Shown: positions 8,417 to 38,778 of the stretch, piece after piece
Layout of the letters: each line of letters starts with the position of its first letter
Position numbering within the stretch: the stretch's first letter is position 1
DNA from: Bacilli bacterium
Lineage (GTDB): Bacteria; Bacillota_I; Bacilli_A; RF39; UBA660
DNA length: 64,000 bases
NCBI GenBank assembly: GCA_017484065.1
Contig: JAFUTX010000031.1
Span: 98,581 to 162,580, forward strand
Direction of reading: 5' to 3'
Position numbers and translations under genes: made by a program
Notes under the pieces: generated by a model
Told to the model about the DNA's origin: nothing
What the model saw: only the letters and a program-made list of their open reading frames with translations
Databases searched by the model: none

Positions 8417-9133
8417 TTGGTGTATACTATGAAAAAAACATTTAATTTAGTCTTAACGACTGTATTATTGGGAGTATTTTGCTGTTTACCTGTAAAAGCA
8501 GCGGAGTGTAGTAATGATCTTTATCAAGCTGCTGATAAAGTAAAAGTAAGTAATGAGTTTGTGGAGGAAATTGATAACGAAACAGATATTGTTTTATCAA
8601 ATGGTTCTAAACCTATGATGTTGGTTGATAATATTAAAATAGAAAATGTTACAAATCAAATGACAATTGTAGTTACTGAAACCAAAAACAATACTTCAAA
8701 CACTTATAATTATAGTAATTCAAATAATGGTACAATAACTATTAAAGACACAATAGTAAGAAAAGTTAAAAACTATACAATAGATATATATGCTTCAGAT
8801 AGTACAAATTGTGGTGGAACTAAATTAAAAGTTAAATATCTAGAAACACTAGCTTATAATCCTTATTCAAAATCTACTAGATGTGAAGGTAATGAAAAAT
8901 TTGAATATTGTAAAGAATATTTAAATAGAGAAATTACTGAAGAAGAATTTCAAAAGAAACTTAGTGAATATTTAGGAGAAGATGAGGGGGAAAATGATAA
9001 AGAAGGAATATTAGCGTTTATTAACAAACACAAAGTATTATTAATTATAATTATTTCGTTGTTGGTAATAGGGGGTACTACTACCATAATAATTCGAAGA
9101 AGAAAAGGAGTAGATAAAAATGAAAAGAAATAA
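8417..9133 (+). CDS. signal-peptide protein with C-terminal TM anchor and charged tail (type I membrane protein); real start probably MKKTFN at 8429
   Basis: N-terminal signal sequence, Asn/Thr-rich ectodomain, C-terminal hydrophobic stretch + RRRKG; overlaps next ORF start by 14 nt (coupled). Confidence 0.5.
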   Translation: MVYTMKKTFNLVLTTVLLGVFCCLPVKAAECSNDLYQAADKVKVSNEFVEEIDNETDIVLSNGSKPMMLVDNIKIENVTNQMTIVVTETKNNTSNTYNYSNSNNGTITIKDTIVRKVKNYTIDIYASDSTNCGGTKLKVKYLETLAYNPYSKSTRCEGNEKFEYCKEYLNREITEEEFQKKLSEYLGEDEGENDKEGILAFINKHKVLLIIIISLLVIGGTTTIIIRRRKGVDKNEKK

Positions 9134-12100
9134 TTTAAAAAGATTAGGTATTGGTTTATTAAGTACAATACTTTTTGCTAGTTTTACTGGCGATGTAAAA
9201 GCTGGTACATGTGCAGATTATTCTCAAAGTTTTACAGTCACTGAAACTGGTGGAGCAAGCGGAATCACATCTCAAAATACTTATCAATCAAATTCCAATG
9301 GAAAATATCAATATTGGAACTATAGTGTTAAGTACAATGGTGGGAGTGGAAGTATTTCAGGTGTAGGATTCTGTATTGACCCTGCTAAAAGTGGTTGGAG
9401 CGGAACAGGATACTGTACAAGAGAGGTTAATCCATATGATTCAAGTAATGGAGTTAATGTTCAAAGATTTGATAGAGCTTTAACTTATTTATATGATAAA
9501 TATGCATATAACATTACTTCTAATAGAGAATTAGGAGATTTAACAGTTAAATTAATAACTTATTATTATGGTTTAGGAGAAAGCAATAATTCTTCTAATA
9601 ATACTATTAATTGGGGACCTTATAAATTAAGACATGAAACATTCTTAAAATACAGAAATAATGTTGGATATTCTGCTACTGATAAGAATGCACCTTTGTA
9701 TGATACTGCTAATAGCAATTATACAAAAGCATTATCTTATGCTAAAGAATCTGTAGAATATGCAAATAATGATGCAAATTGGACTACTATATCAAGTGAA
9801 AATATTGCATATATAAAAGATAAAGGTATAACAGAAAAAAATGCTGCAAATGCAAGTCAAAAAAGTAGTGAAGACTTATACTGGGCATTTACTGACGCTA
9901 GTGGTAAAGAAATTAATGCAACAAAAGCTGGAAATGTGTATGATTTAGGTGGATATACTGGAGAGTTTACTGCAACTGCTTATTTAAGAATACCATTTGT
10001 TGAAAAGCTAGCTTCAAATTATGAAACTGCATTAACAGCAGCAAAAAATATGTTTAATTTTAAATGTGATAATTCAACATGTCAATTAAGTAATATTACA
10101 AGTGTTGGAAATAAAAAATATATACTTGTAGGTATTTCTGTTAAAGGTAATACATCAACTTATAATGGTGGTATTGGTTCATTTAATGATACTAACAACT
10201 CTGCTTCTATACAATCTAAAGGTAATATTGTAATATTAAATTCAAAAAATGTTGATACTGGAAATCAAGGTACAGGAATGCAACGTTATGTATTCTTCTT
10301 AAACAATGAAATTAAAAAGAATGCTGATGGTAATAAAATTGCTGATATAATATTACCAAAATTACAAAGTGGTTGTAGAAAAGATGAATCTACTGGATTA
10401 TGCTATGGTCCAGATGGAAAAACTATAAGTTGTAGTGAATATGAAAAATATTGTCCATCAACTTGCTATATAAAAGATGGTAAATATTATGTATCAAATG
10501 GTAAAGAAGTTACGGAAAGTGAATATTTAAAACAATGTCCTATGACTTGTAAAGTCGAAACTGACGTAACTACAGGTAGAAAAATATATCGTGGTCAAGA
10601 TGGTAAAATAGTTGATGAAGCTACTTATAATACTCAATGTAAAAATGATAATGGACCTCAATGTGAAGTAAAAAATGGTAAATATTACATTGATGGTAAA
10701 TCAGTTAGCAAGAAAAAATACGAAGATGAATGTCCTTGTAGTTCATACATAAGAGCAGTAGATGCTTGTTATGAACCTGGTGATGCAGATAGTAAGAATT
10801 ATGACACTATCGCTGCTAAAATTTATGGACCTAGAAATGTAAAACAATGTTTCTTCCCAGATGGTGTAGAATTAAGTGATGATTCTAATAAAAAGGATGA
10901 AGCAAAAAATACATATAAACTATCAAATACTGATGAAGCAGTAGGAGTATTAGAAAATAAATATTGTGCTGTTTACTGTAAAGAAGATTATGTATTTGAA
11001 TATCCAAATGTTAAATATGGTAACCAAGGTGAATATTTCAAATTAAAATTAAATATTACTGGCGAGAAAACATGCTACGAAAAAGTAGATGTTGATAAAT
11101 TTAATAGTGATGTTGCAACACAACAACAAAAAGTTGTAGATGCTTATAATAAGTATTCTGCATTCAAGAAAATTAGTGATGCTTATAGATCATCTAGCAA
11201 AAATAGTTGTGGAGGAGCTTCATTTACTACATATTTTGATACTTATAACGTTAGTGGTAATAGAACTAGTAATACTGCTACAGTTAAAGTAGGTAAAGAT
11301 GAAAGTGAATTATTTGGTTGTGTAAGCGTTGCTGATTATCCAGATAGTTATCAATTTGCTGATTCAAACTCATTAGATAGTAAATTAAAAGCTACTAAAG
11401 AAGAATTTGACACAGCTAAAAAAGAATTAGATAAGATGTTAGAAGACATTGAAGACTGTATTCCAGAATCTGCTAAATCAGGTGGATGGGATGATGGTAT
11501 CAATGATAAATATACTACTTGGTATGATCCTGAAGTAAGTTATACTTACGATACTGAATACAAAAATCAAAAGGATATTACTATAGCTAAAGATAAAAAC
11601 TTCTCTGAGAATATCGATGATGATCAAGAAGTATGGTCATGTAATGGCGAAAGTAATAATTCATTAACAAGTTGTAATGGTACAAAATCTGATAAATTTA
11701 CATTTGATAGAAATCGTACATTTATAAACTGTACTGATAACGGTTGTTCAACTACTAGAAAAGATGTCCCAACAACTAAATACTATAAAGTAATTAGTTC
11801 AGTAGATGCTGATTATACAAGTAAAACACTATATAAATCTAGATATCCTGATGGTAAAACAACAAATACTGATATTAAAAATGATTATGAAATTAAAGAT
11901 AATTATAAAAACTTAGTTAATGGTGTTCCAATTCATATTGAAGAAACTGATGGATTACATAAATATTCAATAAACATTGACAACTTAGGACGTTATTACG
12001 ATAAAGATAAAGGTGATTTAGGACGTTTAATTGGTGGAAGTAAGAGTGTTTATGATAAATTTGATTTAGATAGTGAATACGTATGTAGTTACGATGTTAA

Positions 12101-12992
12101 TGATTGTGAAGAATACATTAAGGATCCAAATACTGGTGAATATTGTTGTATAACTGAAGCTATAAAAGGTGCTGATGGCAAATATTACTGTAGTAATCCA
12201 CAAAAAGATACATGTAAACTTGTAGTAGATGATAGAGACAATATTTGTTGTGAAGACGAAGAAGTGCTTCAACCAGATGGTACTAAACAATGTAGTGAAT
12301 GTACTGAATATACTGATAAAAATAACAATACATGTTGTAAAGAAGATGCTAAAGAGGATGATAAAGGCGATTTAGTATGTTGCCCTGAATGTAAGGTTGT
12401 TTGTTTCTGTCCATATACTGAAAAAGATGGTAAGAAGTGTGAAAAAATCGATGATTACACATGTAAATTTAGTAAAGATGAAGACAAATGTAAAGATGGA
12501 GAATGTAAGGTTGAATGTATTGGCTCTAACTGTATTAAATTAGAAGAAGGAAATGTTAATGTAAGACAAATTTCTGAAACTAATATTAATGCTAATGAAA
12601 CATCTAAAGTAAGTAACTGGACTGAGAAGAATGAAAAAGTTGAACAAACAATTAATCAAATTCAAAGTTCAGCTAGTGAAAATAAAACTCCTGAATATAA
12701 ATTTGTTTTATCTCCAAAAGCTTTAAGCTCTATTAGAGAATCAAATAAATCTTCTTGGAATGCATTATATCAATCTAAAGAAAATAATTACTTAACTTGT
12801 GATTATATTGGTACAAATACTCAAAGAATTGCATGTAAGAGTAATTATCTAGATTGGTTAGTTAAAGAAGTATATAATGGAAGTTGTCCAACTGATGGTA
12901 GTGGAGATTGTAAATATGATTTCAACAATACTGATAACTTCACAACTTGGACAGGTGCTTTAACTAAGGGCGTAGGTCCTGCTTGGAAATAA
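9120..12992 (+). CDS. giant (1290 aa) secreted Cys/Lys/Asn-rich protein with internal CPxxC-GKYY repeats; no LPXTG or TM anchor
   Basis: signal peptide MKRNNLKRLGIGLLSTILFASFTGDVKA; dozens of Cys in CxxC/CC pairs; uninterrupted ORF; immediately precedes Tad-like locus. Confidence 0.6.
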   Translation: MKRNNLKRLGIGLLSTILFASFTGDVKAGTCADYSQSFTVTETGGASGITSQNTYQSNSNGKYQYWNYSVKYNGGSGSISGVGFCIDPAKSGWSGTGYCTREVNPYDSSNGVNVQRFDRALTYLYDKYAYNITSNRELGDLTVKLITYYYGLGESNNSSNNTINWGPYKLRHETFLKYRNNVGYSATDKNAPLYDTANSNYTKALSYAKESVEYANNDANWTTISSENIAYIKDKGITEKNAANASQKSSEDLYWAFTDASGKEINATKAGNVYDLGGYTGEFTATAYLRIPFVEKLASNYETALTAAKNMFNFKCDNSTCQLSNITSVGNKKYILVGISVKGNTSTYNGGIGSFNDTNNSASIQSKGNIVILNSKNVDTGNQGTGMQRYVFFLNNEIKKNADGNKIADIILPKLQSGCRKDESTGLCYGPDGKTISCSEYEKYCPSTCYIKDGKYYVSNGKEVTESEYLKQCPMTCKVETDVTTGRKIYRGQDGKIVDEATYNTQCKNDNGPQCEVKNGKYYIDGKSVSKKKYEDECPCSSYIRAVDACYEPGDADSKNYDTIAAKIYGPRNVKQCFFPDGVELSDDSNKKDEAKNTYKLSNTDEAVGVLENKYCAVYCKEDYVFEYPNVKYGNQGEYFKLKLNITGEKTCYEKVDVDKFNSDVATQQQKVVDAYNKYSAFKKISDAYRSSSKNSCGGASFTTYFDTYNVSGNRTSNTATVKVGKDESELFGCVSVADYPDSYQFADSNSLDSKLKATKEEFDTAKKELDKMLEDIEDCIPESAKSGGWDDGINDKYTTWYDPEVSYTYDTEYKNQKDITIAKDKNFSENIDDDQEVWSCNGESNNSLTSCNGTKSDKFTFDRNRTFINCTDNGCSTTRKDVPTTKYYKVISSVDADYTSKTLYKSRYPDGKTTNTDIKNDYEIKDNYKNLVNGVPIHIEETDGLHKYSINIDNLGRYYDKDKGDLGRLIGGSKSVYDKFDLDSEYVCSYDVNDCEEYIKDPNTGEYCCITEAIKGADGKYYCSNPQKDTCKLVVDDRDNICCEDEEVLQPDGTKQCSECTEYTDKNNNTCCKEDAKEDDKGDLVCCPECKVVCFCPYTEKDGKKCEKIDDYTCKFSKDEDKCKDGECKVECIGSNCIKLEEGNVNVRQISETNINANETSKVSNWTEKNEKVEQTINQIQSSASENKTPEYKFVLSPKALSSIRESNKSSWNALYQSKENNYLTCDYIGTNTQRIACKSNYLDWLVKEVYNGSCPTDGSGDCKYDFNNTDNFTTWTGALTKGVGPAWK

Positions 12993-13010
12993 TAGAAAGG
13001 GAAGTATAAT

Positions 13011-13421
13011 ATGAAGAGTTCATACTGGGGATATTTGTTAGTAATCTTAGGAATATTTGTAGTGGCTATACTTATGTTAACTCAAAGTGTAACCACTTCT
13101 AATACTCAAGATTATTACATAGTAAAGGAAGTAACAGAGGCGGCAATGGTTGATGCTATAGATTACGGTTATTATCGTGAATATGGCGAGCTAAAAATAA
13201 ATAAAGAAAAGTTTGTTGAAAACTTTTTGCGTAGATTTGCTGATTCTGTTGGTTTAAGTAAAACCTATACAGTTGAATTCTATGATTTATACGAAGCTCC
13301 ACCTAAAGTTAGTGTACAAGTAAGTAGTGATGCTGGATCATTTACTGTTGGTACTGATACAACAGAAAAAAGTGTTACTAACAGAATAGATGCTATCTTA
13401 GAAATTAGTGGGGAGGAATAA
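13011..13421 (+). CDS. small N-terminally membrane-anchored protein (possible pseudopilin/assembly factor)
   Basis: 136 aa, single N-terminal TM; position between giant protein and cpaB-like gene. Confidence 0.4.
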   Translation: MKSSYWGYLLVILGIFVVAILMLTQSVTTSNTQDYYIVKEVTEAAMVDAIDYGYYREYGELKINKEKFVENFLRRFADSVGLSKTYTVEFYDLYEAPPKVSVQVSSDAGSFTVGTDTTEKSVTNRIDAILEISGEE

Positions 13422-13423
13422 GA

Positions 13424-14209
13424 ATGGGTAATATAGTTGCATCTCTTAAGCGTTTACTAGCTAATAAGAATACTGTTACATTCTTAGGTGTAATAGCTGC
13501 AGTAATAGTATTATATGTTGGATATAGTATACGTGTTGGACAAGCAATTAAACAAATTCCTATTCCTTATGCTAAAAAAGAAATAGGAGCTATGACCGAA
13601 ATAACTGAAGATATGATAGGAACAGTAGATGTTCCTTCTACTTTGGTTAGTAAACATAATTTAATAAGTAGTAAACAACAACTAGTTGATATGTATGTTA
13701 CTAGTGGAACCTCTATTCCTGAAGGAGGATTTTTCCATAAGAATCAAGTAGTTCAAAAAGGTTCTTTACCAAATTCAGTTTTAGAAGATATACCTGATGG
13801 TTATACTATTTATAGTTTATCAGTTAATAATCATTCAACTTATGGTAATTCCATTTATCCTGGTGATTATATCGATTTATATTTTAAATCAACTGATGAT
13901 ACTGGTAGAGTACAATTTGGTAAATTTATTGAAAGTATTCAAGTATTAGCTGTTAGAGATAGTTCTGGTAGAGATGTATTTAGTCAAACTCAAGCTGGAG
14001 TTCCTGCTGAATTATTATTCTCTGTAACTGATGAGTATTTCCAATTATTACGTAAAGCTGATTATATTAGTGGTTATTCAATTGAAATTACTCCAGTACC
14101 AAGAAATAAATCTTATACTGCTAAAGAAGGAGATACTTCAATAGTAAGTAATGATATTAAACAATTTATTTTAGCAAAATCAAGTCAAATAGATAGTAAT
14201 TTAAATTAA
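13424..14209 (+). CDS. cpaB: Flp pilus assembly protein CpaB/RcpC-like (SAF domain)
   Basis: N-terminal TM then IPIPYAKKEIGAMTEITEDMIG..VDVP pattern typical of CpaB; 261 aa. Confidence 0.65.
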   Translation: MGNIVASLKRLLANKNTVTFLGVIAAVIVLYVGYSIRVGQAIKQIPIPYAKKEIGAMTEITEDMIGTVDVPSTLVSKHNLISSKQQLVDMYVTSGTSIPEGGFFHKNQVVQKGSLPNSVLEDIPDGYTIYSLSVNNHSTYGNSIYPGDYIDLYFKSTDDTGRVQFGKFIESIQVLAVRDSSGRDVFSQTQAGVPAELLFSVTDEYFQLLRKADYISGYSIEITPVPRNKSYTAKEGDTSIVSNDIKQFILAKSSQIDSNLN

Positions 14210-14231
14210 TAAATAATTTAAGAATAAGAAG

Positions 14232-15410
14232 GTGTTTAGAGTGAATGAAGCTATATTTTCACAAATAGACTTTGGACCTTTGAAAGAATTTCTTAATGAT
14301 GAAGCTATCACCGATATATCTTATAGTAATAATGGACAAATTCATTTAAAAACTTTGGATAAAGGTGTATATGCAGTTAAAAGACCTGAAATTAACAATG
14401 CATTAATGGAGAAATTAGCATTTCAATGTTCCAATGTTATGGGTAAAACATTTAATATGGCCCATCCTTTTTTGGATGCTGAAAGTGCCGAGCTACGTTT
14501 AAATTTTATTCATGATTCTATTGCAACTAATGGTATAGCTTGCGTTATTCGTAAAACACCTGCTAAAATAAGATTAAATAAAGAAAAATTAATAAATGAA
14601 GAATATGTAACAGAAGATGTGTTAAACTTTTTATTACAATGCGTTAAGGGGCATTGTAATATTATCGTTAGTGGAGAAACTGGTTCTGGTAAAACTGAAT
14701 TAGTTAAGTATTTAGCTAGTAACACTAACGAAAATGAAAAAATAATAACAATAGAGGATACTCTTGAATTACACTTAGATAGAATATTTCCACATCGTGA
14801 TATAGTAGCTATGAAAACTAATAATATAGCTAGTTATTCTGATGTACTTGTTACATGTATGAGACAAAACCCTATTTGGATATTACTTTCCGAAGTACGT
14901 AGTGCTGAAGCAGTTATGGCAGTTCGTAACTCTATATCTTCAGGACACAACATTTTATCAACCATCCATAGTGATAAAGCAAGTAATATACCAATGCGTA
15001 TGTATAGTTTGTTGGAAAGTAATATTGATACTGAACAATTTATAAGAACTATACATAGATATGTTCAAATAGGAATATATGTAAAAGGTTATATGTCAAC
15101 TAAATTAAATAGATTTCAAAGAGAGATTATTGAAGTATGTGAATTTTATGTTGATGAAAATAATGAAGCTAAAGTTAATACTATATTTAGTAAATCATTA
15201 GATGGAACTTTTTCTTTAAATAATCCTACTAAGCATTTAAGAGATTATGTTAGTATTCAAGGTGTAACTTTTGAAGAAGATTTATTCCATATAAATAATA
15301 AAGTAGGTAACATTCAAAATCCTAATGCTAATCAAGTAACTCCACCTGTTGTTAATACACAGAATATTAAAGCTGAAGATGTTAATCAAGCTTTAATTGA
15401 AATGCTATGA
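14232..15410 (+). CDS. tadA: Tad/Flp secretion ATPase CpaF/TadA (VirB11/FlaI superfamily)
   Basis: Walker A GETGSGKT, Walker B ILLSEVRSAEA, His box STIHSDKAS; 392 aa. Confidence 0.85.
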   Translation: MFRVNEAIFSQIDFGPLKEFLNDEAITDISYSNNGQIHLKTLDKGVYAVKRPEINNALMEKLAFQCSNVMGKTFNMAHPFLDAESAELRLNFIHDSIATNGIACVIRKTPAKIRLNKEKLINEEYVTEDVLNFLLQCVKGHCNIIVSGETGSGKTELVKYLASNTNENEKIITIEDTLELHLDRIFPHRDIVAMKTNNIASYSDVLVTCMRQNPIWILLSEVRSAEAVMAVRNSISSGHNILSTIHSDKASNIPMRMYSLLESNIDTEQFIRTIHRYVQIGIYVKGYMSTKLNRFQREIIEVCEFYVDENNEAKVNTIFSKSLDGTFSLNNPTKHLRDYVSIQGVTFEEDLFHINNKVGNIQNPNANQVTPPVVNTQNIKAEDVNQALIEML

Positions 15411-15423
15411 AAGGAGTGAATTT

Positions 15424-16317
15424 ATGGAACTTATATTATTACTCATCATAGCTTTAACTGTAGTAGGATACCGTAAAGGTGGTAAAGCTGGTGTATCTAA
15501 ATTTTTCACTGGCCAAGTTACATCTATTTATAATAAATATGTACCTTATAGTTATGAAGTTGTTAAAGCAAAAGTTAAAGAATTAGGACAAGATTATAGT
15601 GTAAAACAATATACTACACAAGTAATTATCTTTGCAGTAGGAGGATTTGGTATATCATTTTTATATTTCTATAATATAATGATATCAGCTATTTATGCTG
15701 TAATTGCTGTAATGTTTGTACCATATCTTGCATATCTTAGAAGTCAAAGATTATATAGTGAATACATATTTGAACAAATACAAATATATACTACTAATAC
15801 TATAATGGAATTTAATACTACACAAAGTTTTGTTAAATCATTAGAAGGTGTTAGAGATAGTGGTATATTAGAAGATCCGGTTTTGACAGATGTTAAAAGA
15901 ATGATTGATATGTCTTATCAAAATGGTGTTATAGATGAATCGATAGAGTATTTTAATGCTAAATATCCATATTATATGGTTAAGAATATGCATCAATTAT
16001 TCCTACAAATAACTAAAGAAGGTGCTAAAGATAGTGGCGATGCCTTAGAGAACATGTCAATGGATATTGACTCATTAGTTGAAGGTGTATATCGTGACCA
16101 AATGGATCGTAAAGAATTCCATAAAAAGTTCTTAACATTTGGTGTTATGTTATATTTCTTAGTTATGACAATGCAATTCTTATTAGGTAGAGATGAATAT
16201 AAGAAAATGTTAGATTTATGGTATGTTAATCTAATCTTACATGTAATTATAATCATTAATACTTACTTCTTAGTAAGTGGAGAAAAGTATTATAATGAAG
16301 ATGTGGGGGTAGAATAA
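15424..16317 (+). CDS. tadB: TadB-like polytopic membrane platform protein (T2SS-F fold); ORF track start 15397 likely upstream extension
   Basis: AGGAG RBS 7 nt before ATG 15424; TM-cytoplasmic domain-TM topology; position after ATPase. Confidence 0.55.
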   Translation: MELILLLIIALTVVGYRKGGKAGVSKFFTGQVTSIYNKYVPYSYEVVKAKVKELGQDYSVKQYTTQVIIFAVGGFGISFLYFYNIMISAIYAVIAVMFVPYLAYLRSQRLYSEYIFEQIQIYTTNTIMEFNTTQSFVKSLEGVRDSGILEDPVLTDVKRMIDMSYQNGVIDESIEYFNAKYPYYMVKNMHQLFLQITKEGAKDSGDALENMSMDIDSLVEGVYRDQMDRKEFHKKFLTFGVMLYFLVMTMQFLLGRDEYKKMLDLWYVNLILHVIIIINTYFLVSGEKYYNEDVGVE

Positions 16318-16318
16318 T

Positions 16319-17107
16319 ATGTATATAGAGATATTTATAATTGGTGGAATAATTCTATTTGTATTATTCTATACTGGTCAAATTAATAGAAATAAGTTCT
16401 TTAATGATAATCATGCTTATTTTTCTAAGCTTAAAGAAGAAGATTATGATTTCTTAGTAAAAGTTAAATATGGTGAAGGTGTTAATGCTGATATCTTATT
16501 TAATAAGAGAATTAAAAATGCAGTTATGGTAGGAGCAGTTGTTCTAATTGTTACCTTAGGTGAAGCTTCTTACCTAACAGTGTTATTATCTTTAGGAGTA
16601 GGAGTATTTATTTTTAAATCGGGTTATTCTAGTTTAAAAAGATACTATAAAGCTCATTTAAATCAAGTTAATACAATGTTACCTTATTATTTAAAAAGCT
16701 TAGAGATTCTTATTCAACACTATACTGTACCAGTAGCTATTGGTAAGAGTTTAAATGATGCTCCAGGTATATTTAAAGATGGTTTACAAGAGCTCGTAAA
16801 TGCAATTAATGCTGGTGATGATTCAATTCAACCGTATATGGATTTTGCCAAGAAATATCCAGTAAGAGATTCAATGCGTATGATGCGTTTATTATATCGT
16901 TTAAGTTTAGGTAAACAAGAGAGAAAACAAGAACAATTAGTTACATTCTCTCATTCAATATCTAACTTACAACAAAAAGCAAGAGAATCTAAATATAAAG
17001 CCCGTCTTGATAAGATGGAAGGTAAAACAATGAAAATGCTTATGGTAACAGGAGCAGGAGTAATGGGTTTACTACTTTTATCTGTATTTATGTTAATGGG
17101 AATGTAA
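16319..17107 (+). CDS. tadC: TadC-like membrane platform protein
   Basis: 262 aa, N-terminal TM, helical cytoplasmic domain, C-terminal TMs; pairs with TadB-like. Confidence 0.5.
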   Translation: MYIEIFIIGGIILFVLFYTGQINRNKFFNDNHAYFSKLKEEDYDFLVKVKYGEGVNADILFNKRIKNAVMVGAVVLIVTLGEASYLTVLLSLGVGVFIFKSGYSSLKRYYKAHLNQVNTMLPYYLKSLEILIQHYTVPVAIGKSLNDAPGIFKDGLQELVNAINAGDDSIQPYMDFAKKYPVRDSMRMMRLLYRLSLGKQERKQEQLVTFSHSISNLQQKARESKYKARLDKMEGKTMKMLMVTGAGVMGLLLLSVFMLMGM

Positions 17108-17186
17108 AGTATAATTAAAATATTGATAATTATTAAAAAAAAAGTTATAATATAAATAGTTAAACTAAAGGAGGAATTAATAATTT

Positions 17187-17396
17187 ATGAAAGAAGCAAC
17201 AGGAGAACTAAATATGACAGTTATTGTTGTTATAGCATTAGCAGCTATTTCAGCATTATTTGTAACATTTATTATGCCAATGATACAAAATAGTATTACT
17301 ACTAATTCATGCCATTCTTCAGGATATAATACAAAAGATGTCAATGGTAAATTAGAATGTGACTATAGTAGTACATATACTGCTCCATCAAATTAA
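17187..17396 (+). CDS. Flp/Tad-type prepilin-like protein 1 (69 aa, leader MKEATGELN, 2 Cys)
   Basis: short charged leader ending in G, followed by hydrophobic helix TVIVVIALAAISALFVTFI; RBS AGGAGG upstream. Confidence 0.5.
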   Translation: MKEATGELNMTVIVVIALAAISALFVTFIMPMIQNSITTNSCHSSGYNTKDVNGKLECDYSSTYTAPSN

Positions 17397-17407
17397 GGTG
17401 ATATAAT

Positions 17408-17629
17408 ATGAAAGAGGCAACGGGAGAACTTAATTCAACAGTTATTGTTGTTATAATAGTAGGGCTTGTTATTGCCTTTTTCTTTTCTGTTGTATGGCCA
17501 ATGATTGATAGAGATGTTAGCGATACTGCAGATTGTAGTAAAGCAGTATGTGGGACAGATGTTGGTGATGACGGAAAAGTTGATTGCAAAAACGGAAACA
17601 AAACTATAAGATGTCCTTATAAGGGGTAG
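17408..17629 (+). CDS. Flp/Tad-type prepilin-like protein 2 (73 aa, identical leader, 4 Cys)
   Basis: MKEATGELNSTVIVVIIVGLVIAFFF; paralog of previous. Confidence 0.5.
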   Translation: MKEATGELNSTVIVVIIVGLVIAFFFSVVWPMIDRDVSDTADCSKAVCGTDVGDDGKVDCKNGNKTIRCPYKG

Positions 17630-17639
17630 GTGGTCATAA

Positions 17640-18056
17640 TTGAAAGAATCAATTGAAGGGACTACTTTATTAACAATTGTTATGGTATTTTTATTTGTAT
17701 TCACAGCAGTTATATGTGTATCTTTAAACTATTCAAATGCCTTTAAAACTAAAAATGATTTGATTAAGTATATAGAAAGACATGGTATAGAAGCTGCTAA
17801 AGATGCGGAATATATAGAAAATCTTAAACAAAATGGTTATACTGCAACTGGAACATGTCCTAATGAAGAGGGTTTTACACCGGTTGGCGATGATGACGGA
17901 ACTTTGTTTTGTTATAAAGAAAATAAAAGTAACAGTTCAGCAGAATTAAGTAATAGCAAATATTATGATATTGTTGTTTTTTATAAAATTGATGTACCAT
18001 TGGTTAATAAAATATCTTTTCAAGTTCGTGGTAGTACAAAAAGTATTTATAATTAG
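17640..18056 (+). CDS. TadE-like pseudopilin (TTG start), ATGTCP motif, 2 Cys
   Basis: N-terminal TM LLTIVMVFLFVFTAVICV then globular domain; RBS AAGGGGTAGGTGG. Confidence 0.45.
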   Translation: MKESIEGTTLLTIVMVFLFVFTAVICVSLNYSNAFKTKNDLIKYIERHGIEAAKDAEYIENLKQNGYTATGTCPNEEGFTPVGDDDGTLFCYKENKSNSSAELSNSKYYDIVVFYKIDVPLVNKISFQVRGSTKSIYN

Positions 18057-18071
18057 AAATGCGGTGATATA

Positions 18072-18650
18072 ATGAGAGAAAGTATGGGTTCGACTTGGAT
18101 AATGAGTTTAATGATTAGCTTTATCTTTATATTCACTGCTTTTTTAATACTTGCAATGAATTTTACTAAAGTTTATAAGATGAAAAATGAAGTAACTACT
18201 ATTTTAGAAAAATACGAAGGTGTAACAAGGAGTTCTAAAGGAGAAAAAAGCAATGGCTGGGGGTCTATATCACTAGTTAAAAATTATTTATCAGCTAGTG
18301 GTTATTCAGCAACTGGTAATTGTCCAGTAGATACTGAATCTGATCCTAAAGGTGAGAGATTAGGTTTGTGGTATGGAGCTACCGATTTAGTTGCTAATAA
18401 TGGAGTTTTAAAAAAAGTAAGTGATTCTAATGAAAAGTTTTATTTTTGTGTTAGAGCTAATAATATTGACAATTCCAAAATGACTTATTTTGATATAAGG
18501 TTATTTTTAAAATTTAATTTACCTGTAATTGGAAATATTACTGCTTTTAGAATTAATGGAAGTACCATAGATATAAAAAATGCCTATTGTAACGGATTTG
18601 AAAGTGGATATAGTACTGGTAAATGTATAGCTACTAAAGTAACTACTTAA
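18072..18650 (+). CDS. TadE/TadG-like pseudopilin paralog, ATGNCP motif, 5 Cys
   Basis: N-terminal TM IMSLMISFIFIFTAFLILA; shares GYxATGxCP motif with previous ORF. Confidence 0.45.
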   Translation: MRESMGSTWIMSLMISFIFIFTAFLILAMNFTKVYKMKNEVTTILEKYEGVTRSSKGEKSNGWGSISLVKNYLSASGYSATGNCPVDTESDPKGERLGLWYGATDLVANNGVLKKVSDSNEKFYFCVRANNIDNSKMTYFDIRLFLKFNLPVIGNITAFRINGSTIDIKNAYCNGFESGYSTGKCIATKVTT

Positions 18651-18681
18651 ATTTTGATTAACAGGAAGAAAAGAGGATAAT

Positions 18682-19695
18682 ATGAATATACTAGTAACAA
18701 ATAAACATAGTATGGAATTAACTAATCTGAATATTGATACTATTCAAGCTATTAATGGTGAATTTAGTATAGATGATTTAGTTAATCAATTTAGTAATTT
18801 TGTATTTAATAAAATGATTATTGATATAACTGCAATAAAAGATTATCAAAATATTAATACTATTCAACAATTATCAACTAAGTTTGATATGAGTAGGGTA
18901 ATATTATTATTAGACGATAGTATTACATCAGATATTTATTTATCAGAGTTAGTAGCATTCGGTATATATAATTTTACTAAAGATATAAATCAAATTAATT
19001 ATTTAATTGAACATACTAATTCTTATGATGAAGTTAAACAGTATCATAAGCAAGATATAGTAACTAGTAATAATGTTGAAAATAGAGAAAATGTTAATAA
19101 CTCACCAGTTACTAACACTGTAAGTGAAGGTTTAAAAATACTAGGTGTAAAAAATGTAACTCCTCATGCTGGAGCTACTACACTGGTATACATGTTAAAG
19201 AAACAATTAGAAGCATATTATAAAGTAGTAGCAGTAGAAGTTGACAATAAGGATTTTCTATATTTAAATGATCCTACTTTAAAGAATACAACTTCTCTAG
19301 ATTTACCAGCATTTATTGCTACAAACAGAGATGTAGAAGTAATATTAGTTGATTTAAATGATAAAGCATCTACAAATTCTTGTACTGATGTAATATATTT
19401 AATTGAACCAGGACTAATTAAACTAAATAAGTTAATTGGTAAAGATAAAAACGCTTTTGAAAGAATTAAAAATAATAAGCTAGTTCTAAATAAAAGTGTA
19501 TTAACTGATGCTGATAAATACGATTTTGAATATGAAAGTAAAACTAAAATATTCTATAATATTCCATATTTAGATGATAAAAAGAGTTATCATCCAGAAT
19601 TAGATGAATTTTTAGCTAATTTAGGCTTTAGTAAAATAAAACAAGGTGAAAAAAAGAAAAAAGGGTCATTCTTTGATCTATTTAAAAAATCTTGA
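18682..19695 (+). CDS. TadZ/CpaE-like protein: receiver-like N-domain + ParA/MinD-like domain with degenerate Walker A
   Basis: N-terminal REC-like fold pattern; GVKNVTPHAGATT in place of GGVGKTT; 337 aa. Confidence 0.45.
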   Translation: MNILVTNKHSMELTNLNIDTIQAINGEFSIDDLVNQFSNFVFNKMIIDITAIKDYQNINTIQQLSTKFDMSRVILLLDDSITSDIYLSELVAFGIYNFTKDINQINYLIEHTNSYDEVKQYHKQDIVTSNNVENRENVNNSPVTNTVSEGLKILGVKNVTPHAGATTLVYMLKKQLEAYYKVVAVEVDNKDFLYLNDPTLKNTTSLDLPAFIATNRDVEVILVDLNDKASTNSCTDVIYLIEPGLIKLNKLIGKDKNAFERIKNNKLVLNKSVLTDADKYDFEYESKTKIFYNIPYLDDKKSYHPELDEFLANLGFSKIKQGEKKKKGSFFDLFKKS

Positions 19696-19748
19696 CATAG
19701 ATATTAATGTTTAATATAATTAAAGAGTAAAGAAAGAGGTGTTTATTA

Positions 19749-20096
19749 ATGACTGAAACAGCTGAATTATGTAATAATGCCGCTCCATTTTTGAAAATTA
19801 TAGGTGTTGTATTATTAGTTGTAAAAATTGCAGTACCTATTATTCTTTTATTAACAGGTGCTATAGCTTATGGATCAGCAGTTATCTCAAACGATGAAAA
19901 AGCAATGAAAGGTGCTACTAGTAAATTAATTAGTAAAATTATTGCAGCAATAGTAATATTCTTATTACCTTATTTATTAAATACACTATTTAATTTAATT
20001 GATGATTATGCTCAATTAGGTAAAAGTTATAAGGCTTGCTGGAATTGTGTATTAAAACCTGACACTTGCCCAAAAACTGAAACTGTAAGTAACTAA
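19749..20096 (+). CDS. small 2-TM protein with C-terminal Cys motif (paralog 1 of 3)
   Basis: 115 aa; shared IxFxLP(T/Y) TM2 motif; tail CWNCVLKPDTCP. Confidence 0.4.
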   Translation: MTETAELCNNAAPFLKIIGVVLLVVKIAVPIILLLTGAIAYGSAVISNDEKAMKGATSKLISKIIAAIVIFLLPYLLNTLFNLIDDYAQLGKSYKACWNCVLKPDTCPKTETVSN

Positions 20097-20204
20097 AAGG
20101 AATAATTAGAATATGTCTATAAATAGACATGTTTTTTTATTTATTATCTTATTGCTAAGAAACTAATGCTTATGTTATAATAATCATGAAAGTAAGTGAT
20201 TTAA

Positions 20205-20636
20205 ATGTTAATTCTTGCCGAATTTTGTGAAGGTGGAGTTCTAAAAGTATTTAGAGCTACTGGTTATATATTATTAATTATAAAAATTATAATACCAATT
20301 GTATTATTAGTTATGGGTATAGTCGATTTATTTCAGGCTATATTTGGCACAGATCCTAAGGCATTAAATACATCAATTCATGCATTTATTCAAAGAATAA
20401 TTGCGGGAGTTATAGTATTTTTTGTTCCAACATTTCTTCATATAGTATTATGGTTATTAAGTGAAGCAGGAACTGCCGATGGCAATAAATTTGTTGGAGA
20501 AAATTTTCCTGTATGTAATGAATGTTTATATCGTCCAAGTGGTACAGATTGTAATAGTCATGTTGACAGCACTAAAGACTGGATGGAAAATGTTGAAGAT
20601 AAGATTGATGAATTAGATAAAAAAGCTGGTGATTAA
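20205..20636 (+). CDS. small 2-TM protein with C-terminal Cys motif (paralog 2)
   Basis: 143 aa; tail CNECLYRPSGTDCNSH. Confidence 0.4.
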   Translation: MLILAEFCEGGVLKVFRATGYILLIIKIIIPIVLLVMGIVDLFQAIFGTDPKALNTSIHAFIQRIIAGVIVFFVPTFLHIVLWLLSEAGTADGNKFVGENFPVCNECLYRPSGTDCNSHVDSTKDWMENVEDKIDELDKKAGD

Positions 20637-21017
20637 ATGAAAAAAAATAAATTAGAAATAATCATTATTATAATATTAACTTTTTTTGTTGGATTTTTTA
20701 TTAATCCAACAAATACATTAGCTGCGCAATGTGTTGATATTATAGGTAATCCTGAATCAGAGGGGACATTTGGTTATTATTTACAATTAATATTTAATAT
20801 TATGAAATATGCTGCTATTATATTATTTGCTGTTTTTTCGGTTAAAGATTTCTTTACTGCAATAATTAACCAAGATCAAAAAGGAGTAAAAAAAGCGTTT
20901 CCAGTTTTTACTAAAAGAGCAGTTTCAGTAGTTATCATATTTTTGCTACCAACTATAGTAAAATTTGTTATTTCAATCTTTGGAAAATTACAAGATCCAA
21001 CTTGTAATATATTCTAG
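20637..21017 (+). CDS. small signal-peptide 2-TM protein (paralog 3)
   Basis: 126 aa; N-terminal signal peptide ending AAQC; tail DPTCNIF. Confidence 0.4.
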   Translation: MKKNKLEIIIIIILTFFVGFFINPTNTLAAQCVDIIGNPESEGTFGYYLQLIFNIMKYAAIILFAVFSVKDFFTAIINQDQKGVKKAFPVFTKRAVSVVIIFLLPTIVKFVISIFGKLQDPTCNIF

Positions 21018-21043
21018 AATCACAATAAAGTTGTGATTTTTTC
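21018..21043 (+). terminator. rho-independent terminator (AATCACAA-TAAAG-TTGTGATT-TTTT)
   Basis: perfect 8-bp stem plus T-tract immediately after the third small gene. Confidence 0.7.
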
Positions 21044-21063
21044 TTTGGGGTGTAGACAACTGA

Positions 21064-21108: not shown

Positions 21109-21804
21109 ATGAAAGACTATATTAAAGATATTCCTGTTGATAATAAATCATATGAAGATATATTATTAGAAATTAAAGATGCTATTAAGAATAATCAAAA
21201 ATATACAATTTTTAGTATTAATCCTAAAAAAATAATGCATTCAATGCAAGATGAAAAACTAAAAAAGGGATTAATTAATGCTAGTGCTCATATACCTGAT
21301 GGTATGTTGGTTGTAAAAAAATGTAAATATATTAATAAACGTGTTACGGGTGTAGACCTAATGAATAAAATCTGTGAAAATTGTCATGATATTAATGGTA
21401 AAATATTTTTTTATGGAGCTAAAAAAGAAGTAGTAGAAAAACTAAATGTAGTTTTAAAAGAAAAATATCCAAATATTACGATAAGTGGTTATATAGATGG
21501 TTATTCTGATAGTGATAAAGTAATAAATGCTATAAATAAGTCTAAAGCTAATATATTATTTGTAGCTATGGGTTCTCCCAAACAAGAATTATGGGTTATT
21601 GACAATATAGATAATCTTAATGTCAATGTAATTATGGGGGTAGGAGGATCTTTTGATGTTTTATCTGGAACTAAGAAAAGAGCACCTAAATTCTTTACTA
21701 AACTTAATTTAGAATGGTTATATAGAATGGTGTGTGAACCAAAAAGAATGAAGGAACTACCGTTATATTTAAAATTTTTATTTACTGTTAAAAGAGATAA
21801 ATGA
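21109..21804 (+). CDS. tagA: WecB/TagA/CpsF family glycosyltransferase (ManNAc transferase-like)
   Basis: 231 aa, FFYGAKKEVVEKL..GSPKQELW pattern of TagA/WecG family. Confidence 0.8.
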   Translation: MKDYIKDIPVDNKSYEDILLEIKDAIKNNQKYTIFSINPKKIMHSMQDEKLKKGLINASAHIPDGMLVVKKCKYINKRVTGVDLMNKICENCHDINGKIFFYGAKKEVVEKLNVVLKEKYPNITISGYIDGYSDSDKVINAINKSKANILFVAMGSPKQELWVIDNIDNLNVNVIMGVGGSFDVLSGTKKRAPKFFTKLNLEWLYRMVCEPKRMKELPLYLKFLFTVKRDK

Positions 21805-21812
21805 GGTAAAAT

Positions 21813-23120
21813 ATGAAATATAAAGTATTATTAATTACTAATGAATATAATGAAGAATTATTAAAAAAACTAAATAGTGATTTTGTAGTAGATTGTCTAA
21901 ATAAAGATATAGTAGAAAATATTGATAAAAATAATATCAAATACTTAGACTATAAAAACTATATAAAGAATTATCAAAGTTTAGATGAGCTAATTGAAGT
22001 ATTAGATAAGTATAGAGATTATTCATTTATTCTTAGTTATAAAGAATTAAAAAATGATAAATATTGTAATGTAAATGATTTTATTAGTGATGATATTAAT
22101 CTTAAAAAATATGAATTAAAGAAACTAAACTTATTAATAGCAGGACATGACCTTAAATTTATTAATGGAATTATTCCGATGCTAAAACAAAGTTTTAATA
22201 TAGAAACTATTGAAAATAGTGATTATTTAGTTATAGATAAGAAAAAATATAAAGAAGCTATAATGAGTTGTGATATAGTATGGTGTGAATGGTTAGTAGA
22301 TAATGCAGTATGGTTTAGTAATAATCTATTATCCCATCAAAGATTAATTATTAGAGCTCATCGTTTTGAACTATTTAAAAATTATGGTTATAAATTAAAT
22401 ATGGATAATGTAGAAAAAATAATAACAGTAGGATATTACTATTATGAAGAATTTATAAAAAAATTTAGTATTCCAAGATGTAAAATGACTATTATTCCAA
22501 ACTTTATTGATACAAAGAAATATACTACTGATAAAGTAAAAGATTATAAGAAGAATATTGCTATTATTGGAACTCTTCCTAAAAGAAAAGGATTTCATCG
22601 AGCTTTAGAAGTACTATTTGAATTAAAAAAATTGGATAAAGATTATAAGTTACATGTATTAGGATTAAACCAAAATGATTTATCAAGTACTAAATTTGAT
22701 AAAGAAGAAGCTAGTTATTATGAACAAATATTAAGAGATATAAAAGTATTTAATCTAGAAGAAGATGTTGTTTTTACAGGATGGGTAGATACTAAGAAGT
22801 ATTTAAAAAATATTGGTTATGTTTTATCAGTTTCAGATAATGAAAAACCAGAGAGTTTTCATTTAACTCCTGCAGAAGGGTTAGTGAGTGGTGCTCTTGC
22901 TTTAGCAACTTATTGGCAAGGTATAGAATATATTTATCCAGATTATATTATAAAGAAAGATGTTAGAGAAATTGTTGATACAATAGTAGAATTAGAAACT
23001 GATGATAAAAAGTATCAAAAGTTAGTTAATGATGGAAGAAACTTTATTATAGATAATTATGATATTGAAGTTGTTTATAAATATTTTATGAATTTATTAG
23101 AGGGTTATTATGAAAGATAA
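21813..23120 (+). CDS. glycosyltransferase, GT-B fold (family 1/4-like) C-terminal domain
   Basis: 435 aa; GTLPKRKG..H..E motifs in C-half; N-half unassigned. Confidence 0.5.
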   Translation: MKYKVLLITNEYNEELLKKLNSDFVVDCLNKDIVENIDKNNIKYLDYKNYIKNYQSLDELIEVLDKYRDYSFILSYKELKNDKYCNVNDFISDDINLKKYELKKLNLLIAGHDLKFINGIIPMLKQSFNIETIENSDYLVIDKKKYKEAIMSCDIVWCEWLVDNAVWFSNNLLSHQRLIIRAHRFELFKNYGYKLNMDNVEKIITVGYYYYEEFIKKFSIPRCKMTIIPNFIDTKKYTTDKVKDYKKNIAIIGTLPKRKGFHRALEVLFELKKLDKDYKLHVLGLNQNDLSSTKFDKEEASYYEQILRDIKVFNLEEDVVFTGWVDTKKYLKNIGYVLSVSDNEKPESFHLTPAEGLVSGALALATYWQGIEYIYPDYIIKKDVREIVDTIVELETDDKKYQKLVNDGRNFIIDNYDIEVVYKYFMNLLEGYYER

Positions 23121-23454
23121 AATTATTAAAACTATTAGAAGTAATAAAATACTATTTAATATAGCTAAGAAAGCAAATAATATAATAGATAAACCAAGTA
23201 AAAATGTATATAAAGATAATTATACTTATTTTGTATATAAGCTTAATAACATTGATGATATTGATTCTATTATAAAAAAATATAATGAAAAAAAACATAA
23301 TAATTCTAGATTAGTTATTATGGTAGATGAAAATAATTATAATTCTATATATAATATAGTGAATAATTATGATGTAAGTATTATTACTCTAAAAGAATTT
23401 AATCTATTAAATAATAGTAATTATAAGTTGGTAGAGCCAAAAATTGTCGATTAA
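23110..23454 (+). CDS. hypothetical protein (114 aa)
   Basis: ORF in operon context only. Confidence 0.3.
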   Translation: MKDKIIKTIRSNKILFNIAKKANNIIDKPSKNVYKDNYTYFVYKLNNIDDIDSIIKKYNEKKHNNSRLVIMVDENNYNSIYNIVNNYDVSIITLKEFNLLNNSNYKLVEPKIVD

Positions 23455-23521
23455 TATTAAACGGCAATTTTTTATTGTTTAAATAATTAATTTATGGTAT
23501 CTTTATAATAGGAGTAAAGTA

Positions 23522-24592: not shown

Positions 24593-24731
24593 TTATTAAA
24601 AAAGTGTTTTTTAAAGAGTATCTTCATCTTCATTTTGTACCATTAATATTATTACTAATTAGTATACTAATATGTCTAATTACAACATTTATTTTAGTAA
24701 AAAAACAAATTGAAAATAGAAGTGATAAAAA

Positions 24732-25076
24732 ATGAATTTAAGATATTTCCCTTTATATATGCTTAAGTTCTTAATTATTACTATAATTATAGAAATTATA
24801 TTTGCTTTTATCCTAGGGTTAAGAAAGAAAGAGTTACTAAATGTAGTGTTAGTTAATATATTAACTAATCCTTTAGTAGTAAGTATAACTGTATATGTAA
24901 ATATAACTTATGGATTATATTATAGAAAAATCACCTTAATTATACTAGAAGTTCTTACTATTATAATAGAAGCATTTATTTATAAAAAATATATAAAAAA
25001 TAAAAATTCTATCAGATTAGCAATACTTTTGAATTTAGCATCATTTTTCGTAGGAGAATTAATTAATTATTTATAA
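24732..25076 (+). CDS. small integral membrane protein
   Basis: 114 aa, 3-4 TM. Confidence 0.3.
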   Translation: MNLRYFPLYMLKFLIITIIIEIIFAFILGLRKKELLNVVLVNILTNPLVVSITVYVNITYGLYYRKITLIILEVLTIIIEAFIYKKYIKNKNSIRLAILLNLASFFVGELINYL

Positions 25077-25091
25077 AAAGGAGTAGAAAAA

Positions 25092-26405: not shown

Positions 26406-26428
26406 ATTTTTGTCTACATTTTTTTATA
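26401..26428 (+). terminator. hairpin + T-tract after SH3b gene
   Basis: GTAGA-TTTTTG-TCTAC then TTTTTTT. Confidence 0.5.
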
Positions 26429-26605
26429 TTATGTAATAAGTTTAAAAGTTGTGGCATTGCTACAAATTTTTTTAATGTTGTTTACATAATATTCATTATT
26501 TAAAGGATAATAATAATTAGTTAAAAGTGTTAAAAAATGTCAAAATGTTTGGTAAAGATTAAGATGTATGATATAATAGTAACGAGTAAAGATGGAGGAT
26601 ATAAA

Positions 26606-27343: not shown

Positions 27344-27351
27344 GTGATATA

Positions 27352-28131: not shown

Positions 28132-28142
28132 TAGAGGTTAAT

Positions 28143-30958: not shown

Positions 30959-31005
30959 TAATGTATAATATTTTTATATTACATGAAATTTAGGGAGGTA
31001 GTACA

Positions 31006-32700: not shown

Positions 32701-32718
32701 GAAAGGATTGTTAGCAAA

Positions 32719-36263: not shown

Positions 36264-36283
36264 ATTTAAAGAGGAAGTATTGT

Positions 36284-38687: not shown

Positions 38688-38778
38688 CTAAATATATTAG
38701 TAGATTTAAATGAAATAAGTAAAATTATATGTAAATCTTAGAAGTTGTGTTATAATATGTCTAAAGGAGTAATTATTT

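Follow-up and report, generated by a model that had tools for sequence, protein, structure and literature searches.

The 64,000-nucleotide stretch of DNA analysed here (the window; positions 98,581 to 162,580 of contig JAFUTX010000031.1, assembly GCA_017484065.1, from a Bacilli bacterium) contains three consecutive open reading frames (ORFs; locus tags IJ574_05820-05830), which lie directly 3' of a 337-aa TadZ-like gene (18682-19695, +) and are referred to below as the triad. We read the triad as an array of proteins resembling the pilins of type IV secretion systems (T4SSs), VirB2-like in role and tied to a machine of the type encoded by integrative and conjugative elements (ICEs) of Mycoplasma, and give this reading a probability of roughly 0.55. 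It draws on family, fold, weak family matches, synteny and expression signals taken together, with the genomic context as the decisive evidence. We are rather confident of the family and evolutionary assignment, namely a relation to the 'VirB2-like pilin arrays' of the candidate phyla radiation (CPR) and to CDS15/Mbov_0395 of Mycoplasma ICEs. That proteins of the triad type actually form a pilus is somewhat more doubtful than probable.

The triad and its protein family

An initial annotation of this DNA had placed three plus-strand ORFs of 115, 143 and 126 aa here, at positions that proved exact (Table 1), and had described them as paralogous proteins with two transmembrane (TM) segments and Cys-rich tails. 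Pairwise BLASTP among the three returns 27–28% identity with E values of 6e-9, 1e-6 and 6e-8, which marks them as genuine paralogs at the level of sequence rather than products of chance similarity. Each contains two hydrophobic 19-mers, and the second-TM motif given earlier is approximately right in all of them (VIFLLPYLL, IVFFVPTFL and IIFLLPTIV in ORF1, ORF2 and ORF3). The quoted C-terminal tails are likewise present: CWNCVLKPDTCP in ORF1, CNECLYRPSGTDCNSH in ORF2 and DPTCNIF in ORF3. ORF1 is laid out as Cys8, helix 1, a Lys-rich loop, helix 2 and a tail with C97-x2-C100-x6-C107, while ORF2 carries Cys8 and the tail cysteines C104-x2-C107-x8-C116 and matches the family hidden Markov model (HMM) at E 4e-36. 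ORF1 and ORF2 cannot be extended upstream: an in-frame stop is found 6 codons ahead of the ATG in the first and immediately ahead of it (0 codons) in the second. The start of ORF3 abuts the stop of ORF2 (TAAATG junction), and its product begins, as had been claimed, with a signal-peptide-like helix and a Sec-type AxA-like site (MKKNKLEIIIIIILTFFVGFFINPTNTLA, cut before AQC), followed by Cys32 within C-x2-IIG-x-P...YYLQ..FN..KY, two helices and the end ...TCNIF. A conserved Cys just before helix 1 in each protein had been overlooked; with it, every triad protein has an even number of cysteines (4, 4 and 2).

A word-indexed homolog search with ORF1 alone found 3 proteins only. An exhaustive HMMER search with the triad profile, counted in cluster representatives, found 9,236 at E<=1e-3 and 3,027 at E<=1e-10, and by profile similarity the triad proteins are members of a large, so far unnamed family, not orphans. 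The conserved domain, as seen in the top 152 matches, spans ~110 aa and is usually C-terminal. A signal-peptide-like N-terminus is present in 104 of the 152; 31 are leaderless like ORF1 and ORF2, and 22 have a short signal-peptide-like leader like ORF3. An N-terminal extension of more than 45 aa precedes the hairpin in 92, with a signal-peptide-like start in 82 of these, and the proteins reach up to 575 aa.

Two subtypes can be distinguished by their cysteines. The 4C subtype (ORF1 and ORF2) combines an N-terminal Cys, KI.(V/I)P in helix 1, a Lys-rich loop (SSDEKAIKKA…KR), IFF(I/L)PT in helix 2 and a C-x2-C-x5-8-C tail; in its alignment C8, P30, P74, C97 and C100 are invariant and C107 is nearly so. 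The 2C subtype (ORF3) always has a signal peptide, followed by C-x2-(I/L)(F/L)G-x-P…YYLQ..FN..K(Y/F), two helices and the end …TC(N/G)I(K/R/F); among the relatives of ORF3, all with a signal peptide, C32 is at least 90% conserved and C123 is invariant. The two profiles are homologous (hhalign probability 99.5%, E 1e-22), which extends the paralogy of the triad to the subtypes, and single proteins that fuse a 4C and a 2C domain also occur (for example, P0006, P0065 and P0130).

AlphaFold2 models of ORF1 and ORF3, built with the family alignments, have the small two-helix TM hairpin architecture of the Pfam family PF18895 (T4SS_pilin). The ORF1 model contains helices at 4-47, 50-83 and 85-102 (predicted local distance difference test, pLDDT, 76), and the ORF3 model contains the signal helix (5-22), a low-confidence unstructured linker and a hairpin formed by 45-77 and 81-115 (pLDDT 74). 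Foldseek comparison of both models with the PDB retrieved generic TM hairpins only (E>1), and a sequence-profile search of the PDB gave noise from G protein-coupled receptors (GPCRs) only (E>=0.075). We infer a topology with both termini outside and the Lys-rich loop in the cytoplasm, because signal peptides or ectodomains are found in the 104 relatives mentioned above, the loops are positively charged (net charge +2, +1 and +3) and the short N-terminal tails are acidic. All conserved cysteines would then lie outside the cell, where disulfides most likely link the N-terminal part of each protein to its tail. A bond of this kind in ORF3 would connect mature residue 4 with the residue fourth from the end and make the hairpin pseudo-cyclic. 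Alternatively, the cysteines may form a metal (Zn) site.

The initial annotation could name no family for these proteins, and this is borne out, as all Pfam and NCBIfam matches are sub-threshold. PF18895 is the top or near-top Pfam match for all three ORFs and the only recurrent sensible one, with 18.6, 18.3 and 14.7 bits for ORF1, ORF2 and ORF3 against a gathering threshold of 26.6. The subtype consensus sequences score 22.8 and, for 2C, 20.4 bits; among 80 relatives, 43 match the family at E<0.01 and 3 reach about the gathering score. These matches point to the triad as a distant relative, not a formal member, of PF18895. The 2C consensus further matches three NCBIfams of Mycoplasma ICEs, all below cutoff: NF045848 (E 6.9e-7), NF045889 (E 2.4e-6) and NF045849 (E 3.6e-4). 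The last, 'Mbov_0395 family pilin-like conjugal transfer protein', gives 20.2 bits for the consensus against a cutoff of 40 and is matched at E<0.01 by 4 of the 80 relatives; the triad proteins themselves do not match it at E<=1. A PHROGs search of the triad returned nothing meaningful, and none of 72,556 plasmids was matched by the 4C consensus in tblastn.

Two named pilin classes were considered. Membership in the classical TrbC/VirB2 family is not supported, given hhalign probabilities below 1% and the lack of any PF04956 (TrbC/VirB2) match in the triad at E<=1. Flp/TadE pilins, which have a class III signal peptide with a prepilin-peptidase site (G/xxxxEY) and one N-terminal hydrophobic helix, are rejected: no Flp or TadE Pfam match was found, two TM helices are present, ORF3 has a Sec-type site, and ORF1 and ORF2 are leaderless.

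Genomic context in relatives and in the window

A census of related loci was anchored on an alignment of the TadZ-like protein, with which GTDB species representatives were scanned; at least 549 relatives were obtained, and 80 retrieved loci were scored with our own HMMs (related loci, inside and outside this set, are numbered below with the prefix L). The top TadZ-like matches all come from gut metagenome-assembled genomes (MAGs) labelled Bacilli, Tenericutes, 'Mycoplasma sp. CAG:776', 'Clostridium sp. CAG:609', Ca. Caccenecus or similar. In 25 of the 39 loci with a CpaF-like ATPase gene upstream and enough downstream sequence, an array of triad-type genes lies no more than 400 bp from the TadZ-like stop; 28 of the 39 have an array within 10 kb and 11 have none. 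The initial annotation had asked whether orthologous Tad loci carry the same triad: arrays do recur beside them, with 1-6 members, and the order 4C-4C-2C is found again in L013. When loci with at least 9 kb of downstream sequence are considered (n=49), 11 have an array and a T4SS, 17 an array only, 20 neither and 1 a T4SS only.

Members of the family are found in three contexts: a Tad-like locus and then an array without a T4SS after it (the window, L003-5, L011/12); a Tad-like locus, an array and, closely spaced on the same strand, a complete T4SS module (L006, L007, L009/10, L094-97); and an array with a T4SS without a Tad locus (L008). The T4SS module follows the array in the order VirB6-like protein (650-1025 aa), ~105-aa protein, ~190-aa 'TraC-like' protein (PF26593), ~595-aa VirB4-type ATPase, wall hydrolase (CHAP, NlpC/P60 or SpoIID) and type IV coupling protein (T4CP). 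The VirB6-like protein matches the Mbov_0396/MMCAP2_0566 families, and ORFs of 107, 187 and 594 aa align with the consecutive segments 2-96, 99-276 and 296-891 of NF045975 (VirB4_plasma), the ATPase part at E 1.9e-103. No relaxase was seen within the stretches examined.

The 2C gene is almost always the last of the array and directly upstream of VirB6 (13 loci: L006, L008, L009, L019, L028, L034, L044, L054, L057, L058, L069, L090 and L094/96), and a 2C gene is normally missing from array-only loci, whose short 4C genes number one or two. The exceptions are the window and its closest relative, L013, a rabbit-gut MAG whose TadZ-like protein is 73% identical to that of the window; in both, the order 4C-4C-2C is followed directly by tagA, in the window after a terminator 3' of ORF3. 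Assemblies with the exact ORF3 sequence all have the same context where flanking genes are included. Because the window and L013 keep the 2C gene though tagA follows, unlike other array-only loci, the triad looks like the pilin-array segment of the Tad-like/T4SS supercluster, with the channel and ATPase genes removed or relocated precisely after the 2C gene. Comparison with L013 gives ratios of nonsynonymous to synonymous substitution rates (dN/dS) of 0.38, 0.50 and 0.25 for ORF1, ORF2 and ORF3, which indicates expressed genes under purifying selection. With 0.17 for the TadZ-like gene, the triad evolves faster than its neighbour, as surface and pilin genes often do.

The array has expression signals of its own (Table 1). 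The promoter ahead of ORF1 is the only 12/12 match within 8-22 kb and one of 3 perfect sites in the window. In 22 of 45 distinct related loci, a match of at least 11/12 stands at the same distance ahead of the first 4C gene, as against 27 of 3,000 random windows (0.9%), and a terminator-like element 3' of the first 4C gene is found in 9 of 43 related loci, as against 24 of 1,500 background windows. With a conserved strong promoter of its own, the array is more than a 3' extension of the Tad operon. The initial annotation, which overlooked both this promoter and the hairpin between ORF1 and ORF2, had assigned the triad to the Tad-like transcription unit; given the perfect sigma-70 promoter and the terminator of ORF1, this assignment is not supported. 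The strong terminator which it had seen after the triad is present in form, with a classical hairpin and U-run, but its statistics are weak (z -1.4) and the overlooked hairpin is the stronger of the two. Strong transcription of a small first gene, attenuated by a terminator ahead of less expressed paralogs, would be the classic layout of a major structural subunit with minor subunits.

Table 1. Features of the array and the adjoining Tad-like locus (window positions; + strand)
Feature	Position	Strand	Description
Tad-like pilus locus	9120..19695	+	same gene order in L003-L012, L094 and many of L013-L092
Promoter TTGACA-17-TATAAT	19692..19720	+	perfect sigma-70-type; overlaps TadZ-like stop, ~30 nt upstream of ORF1
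ORF1	19749..20096	+	115 aa; 4C subtype; leaderless
Intrinsic-terminator-like hairpin and U7	20100..20145	+	between ORF1 and ORF2; -14 kcal/mol, z -4.3
Promoter-like site TTGCTA-18-TATAAT, extended TG	20152..20181	+	upstream of ORF2; 10/12, weak evidence alone
ORF2	20205..20636	+	143 aa; 4C subtype; acidic C-terminal extension
ORF3	20637..21017	+	126 aa; 2C subtype; signal peptide
Terminator-like hairpin, 11-bp stem and U-run	21016..21046	+	closes array; -10 kcal/mol, z -1.4

The Tad-like locus upstream of the triad encodes a Cys-rich 1290-aa protein, DUF5411, an RcpC/CpaB-like protein, a T2SSE/CpaF-like ATPase, two polytopic membrane proteins, two small Cys-rich pilin-like ORFs, two TadE-like ORFs and the TadZ-like protein. 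The 1290-aa protein (9120-12992, +), very Cys-rich and secreted, heads the locus and has no Pfam match; equivalents of ~1030-1860 aa occupy the same position in L003, L005-7, L009 and L094. The two pilin-like ORFs (17187-17396, 69 aa, and 17408-17629, 73 aa; both +) both begin with MKEATGELN, continue into a hydrophobic helix and are Cys-rich towards the C-terminus; they have no Flp match in Pfam. Within the locus, no gene for a prepilin peptidase was recognised. The label 'TadZ-like', taken over from the initial annotation, is backed by position and by a sequence pattern of a receiver-like N-domain and a ParA/MinD-like domain with a degenerate Walker A (KNVTPHAGATTL). The protein has no Pfam match, and its single NCBIfam match is weak and evidently spurious (TIGR00166, ribosomal protein S6, E 0.0069).

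Further genes flank these in the window. An Rce1-like CAAX protease gene lies divergently upstream of the Tad-like locus (7609-8325, -), and type IV pilin/pseudopilin-like genes with N_methyl motifs (141 and 142 aa) are found apart from it at 3270-4124 (+), between engB-like and der-like GTPase genes. Directly 3' of the triad, wall-polymer genes extend over 21109-39720 (+) and comprise a TagA/WecG-type gene, several GT2/GT1 glycosyltransferases, an ABC-2 exporter pair, GtrA and a PMT_2-like gene. This run shows that the organism is walled, despite the 'Tenericutes'-type labels on its relatives. The other two perfect TTGACA-N16-18-TATAAT sites of the window are at 42675 and 45069 (+).

Several observations were made on the T4SS genes of the relatives. 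VirB4 is split into three ORFs of ~105, ~190 and ~595 aa in L009 (14466-17105), with equivalents in L006, L007, L008 and L094, and these align end to end with the single 894-aa VirB4 of Mycoplasma ICEs; in L010 the ATPase ORF is further broken in two, a possible frameshift or pseudogene. The VirB4-type ATPase shares 29-31% identity with the VirB4 proteins of some 2,000 Gram-positive plasmids, with the best match to the Mycoplasmatota plasmid CP074574.1, where a Tad-like module (SAF, AAA ATPase, CpaF, TadB/C-like) adjoins the T4SS. This cold-seep plasmid (L093, 6640-24022) has the T4SS first and then the Tad-like module (SAF, AAA ATPase, CpaF, T2SS-F), the reverse of the order in gut Bacilli. 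Further genes of the plasmid encode a 112-aa pilin-like hairpin without cysteines (NF045849, 18.4 bits) and a surface protein of 792 aa with a weakly similar hairpin at its end. In the VirB6-like proteins of L006 (10966-13305) and L009 (12231-14441), the N-terminal part (~50-135 residues) itself bears a weak resemblance to the pilin-like hairpin (triad HMM E 1.3e-5; NF045849 at 56-113), which hints that VirB6 in this lineage carries a fused pilin-like module.

Proposed mechanism and competing readings

On the pilin-like reading, the triad would consist of divergent T4SS-pilin-like membrane proteins from a Cys-bearing branch related to PF18895 and CDS15/Mbov_0395. Each protein would insert as a helical hairpin with both ends outside and the Lys-rich loop inside, and disulfides between the terminal cysteines would hold its two ends together, much as head-to-tail cyclisation does in TrbC/VirB2 pilins but without a covalent backbone link. 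The array would represent the 5' part of a Mycoplasma-ICE-type (mating-pair formation class MPF-FATA) T4SS module, itself fused to the 3' end of the Tad-like locus, with ORF1 as the abundant major subunit and ORF2 and ORF3 as minor or base subunits. Once extracted from the membrane, the proteins may form, or may line, a filament or conduit at the cell surface that is associated with the T4SS and cooperates with the Tad-like pilus. In the organism studied here, the ATPase and channel genes would then have to be located elsewhere in the genome, or the array would have been taken over by the Tad-like machine. The widest form of the proposal is put forward tentatively and is rather unlikely as it stands: walled Bacillota, and not Patescibacteria alone, would build a VirB2-type T4SS filament or conduit, and a widespread chromosomal supercluster of gut Bacilli (RF39/'Tenericutes'-like MAGs) would couple a Tad-like pilus to a Mycoplasma-ICE-type T4SS through disulfide-stapled hairpins, the two being uncoupled in lineages like that of the window, where the array is perhaps used by the Tad-like machine.

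A number of points weigh against the pilin-like reading. Neither VirB4, VirB6 nor T4CP is encoded in the 64-kb window, no assembly of the species has T4SS genes within 10 kb of the triad, and among relatives 17 of the 28 array-bearing loci with at least 9 kb downstream are without an adjacent T4SS. The matches to named families all stay below curated thresholds, and spurious TM families (Frizzled, GPCRs) score like PF18895 on the triad, so that sequence alone is inconclusive for PF18895. An hhalign comparison with an alignment of seven annotated VirB2/TrbC proteins from Ti-type plasmids gave a probability of 0.3-0.4%. The analogy to VirB2/TrbC-type pilins drawn in the initial annotation has proved the best lead, in view of sub-threshold PF18895 matches and of arrays upstream of VirB6/VirB3/VirB4 in relatives, but not as membership in the classical family. 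Further, many relatives carry ectodomains of 300-450 aa, which fit an anchor at least as well as a filament subunit. A filament would also have to cross peptidoglycan, given tagA and the other wall-polymer genes, and we know of no Bacillota T4SS for which a filament has been shown.

On a rival reading, the proteins are accessory inner-membrane parts of the Tad-like machine (for example, platform, anchor or pilin chaperone) that work with the CpaF-like ATPase independently of any T4SS. The position of the array directly 3' of the TadZ-like gene in 25 of 39 Tad-like loci speaks for such a role, as do the one or two short 4C genes that persist where no T4SS adjoins (17 of 28 loci, including the window species, L003-5 and L011/12), the purifying selection acting on the array there, and the Cys-rich character of other extracellular proteins of the Tad-like locus. 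However, L008 has an array with a T4SS and no Tad locus upstream, and arrays are missing altogether from 11 of 39 Tad-like loci. A separate promoter and terminator take the place of operon continuity in the array, its family similarities are to T4SS pilin-like and ICE proteins and not to Flp, TadE or TadG, and the 2C subtype tracks VirB6 rather than Tad genes. We regard a Tad-accessory role as unlikely. Another reading keeps the T4SS and makes the hairpin its membrane anchor or docking module, with long members displaying adhesin-like ectodomains for mating-pair or host contact and short ones scaffolding around VirB6. The long N-terminal extensions in 92 of 152 relatives (82 with a signal-peptide-like start), the mixture of short and 250-550-aa forms in T4SS-adjacent arrays and the weakly similar hairpin near the N-terminus of VirB6-like proteins (E 1.3e-5) would suit it. 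Both pilin termini face outward in F-type pili, so that N-terminal fusions are compatible with a filament as well. The short ORF1-3 have no ectodomain to display, and the strong promoter and the terminator that serve ORF1 point to a structural subunit made in many copies. Although Gram-positive T4SSs do depend on adhesins (PMC12857230), an anchor function is judged improbable, to about the same degree as the Tad-accessory role.

Two further readings carry far less weight. The triad could encode VirB3-like inner-membrane subunits, as small 2-TM proteins near VirB4 and VirB6, and CDS13 and CDS15 of Mycoplasma ICEs, the latter being the positional equivalent, have been called VirB3-like (PMC12857230). 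However, in the full clusters a separate ~105-aa ORF matches the VirB3-like N-terminal segment (2-96) of the Mycoplasma VirB3-VirB4 fusion, and the termini of VirB3 are cytoplasmic (PMC12857230), as opposed to the signal peptides, ectodomains and terminal cysteines of the triad family; multi-copy divergent arrays are, in addition, typical of pilins and not of VirB3. With the VirB3 position filled by another ORF and the predicted topology opposite, this reading is very improbable. Holin-like or bacteriocin-immunity peptides unrelated to the neighbouring machinery, the other comparison made in the initial annotation, share small size and two TM helices with the triad and nothing else. No such family was found in Pfam or PHROGs, no bacteriocin, lysin or phage genes lie nearby, and synteny with Tad-like and T4SS genes is kept across dozens of species; the census effectively refutes this idea.

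Comparison with known systems

Some components of this picture are already known. As NCBIfam already applies a 'pilin-like' label to the Mycoplasma ICE protein and PF18895 exists in Pfam, no new category is proposed here. DUF5411 and CpaF operons in Clostridia have been predicted to encode a secretion system in a study based on natural language processing (PMC9523054). MPF-FATA systems have been described as being without pilin homologs and monoderm or Gram-positive T4SSs as being without VirB2 (PMC4027160), and Patescibacteria are held to be unique among monoderms in having VirB2-like arrays and possible conjugative pili (PMC12102498; PMC12857230). The literature searched contains no description of the Cys-bearing family or of a fused Tad-like and T4SS supercluster in gut Bacilli. 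The array described here would extend the theme of pilin arrays to Bacillota, with thousands of clusters and a place exactly at the pilin position of Mycoplasma-ICE-type T4SS clusters in abundant gut Bacilli, and it offers concrete candidates for the filament or conduit of Gram-positive T4SSs, a component usually said to be lacking. Further, the conserved Tad-like/T4SS fusion points to an apparatus of two machines for contact and transfer in uncultured gut bacteria with reduced genomes, and the terminal cysteines lead to a simple, testable prediction of a disulfide-stapled, pseudo-cyclic pilin.

The closest parallel is found in Patescibacteria, where arrays of 2-11 divergent (~25% identity) VirB2-like pilins lie beside virB4 (PMC12102498; PMC12857230). 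Like these PF18895-detected arrays, the triad family comprises small 2-TM hairpins encoded as tandem divergent paralogs, in monoderms with VirB4/VirB6/VirB3 of the MPF-FATA type and with co-occurring type IV filaments. The host is different, as the present arrays come from Bacillota (MAGs of gut Bacilli/'Tenericutes'), and the triad stays below the PF18895 threshold. The arrays are also physically fused to a Tad-like locus, with the T4SS not adjacent in the window species, and neither the terminal cysteines nor the 2C subtype is mentioned in the two CPR papers (PMC12102498; PMC12857230).

The order of hairpin, VirB6-like and VirB3/VirB4 genes in the relatives is that of CDS15-CDS16-CDS17 in Mycoplasma ICEs (NF045849; NF045889/NF045848, VirB6-like; NF045975). 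In contrast to these elements, the hairpin matches are sub-threshold, VirB4 is distributed over three ORFs, arrays take the place of a single gene, and cysteines and signal peptides come in addition. The wall hydrolase of the gut Bacilli clusters, a further difference, is explained by these organisms being walled.

With classical TrbC/VirB2 proteins (PF04956; RP4 TrbC and Ti VirB2), the triad family would share the two-helix hairpin, the inside loop, the outside termini, the signal peptide (ORF3) and the place at the head of a T4SS operon. The termini are joined by cyclisation in TrbC/VirB2 and by a putative disulfide in the triad family. The two further differ in that no sequence or profile similarity is detected (no PF04956 match; hhalign <1%), the envelope is monoderm, and no cyclase (TraF) or VirB5 was identified. 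Finally, the joint encoding of a type IV filament and a VirB4-type system recalls the thin pilus and T4SS of the IncI plasmid R64 and the archaeal Ups and Ced systems. Unlike in those, the filament system beside the present arrays is Tad-like with a CpaF-type ATPase, and the cluster is chromosomal and widely conserved.

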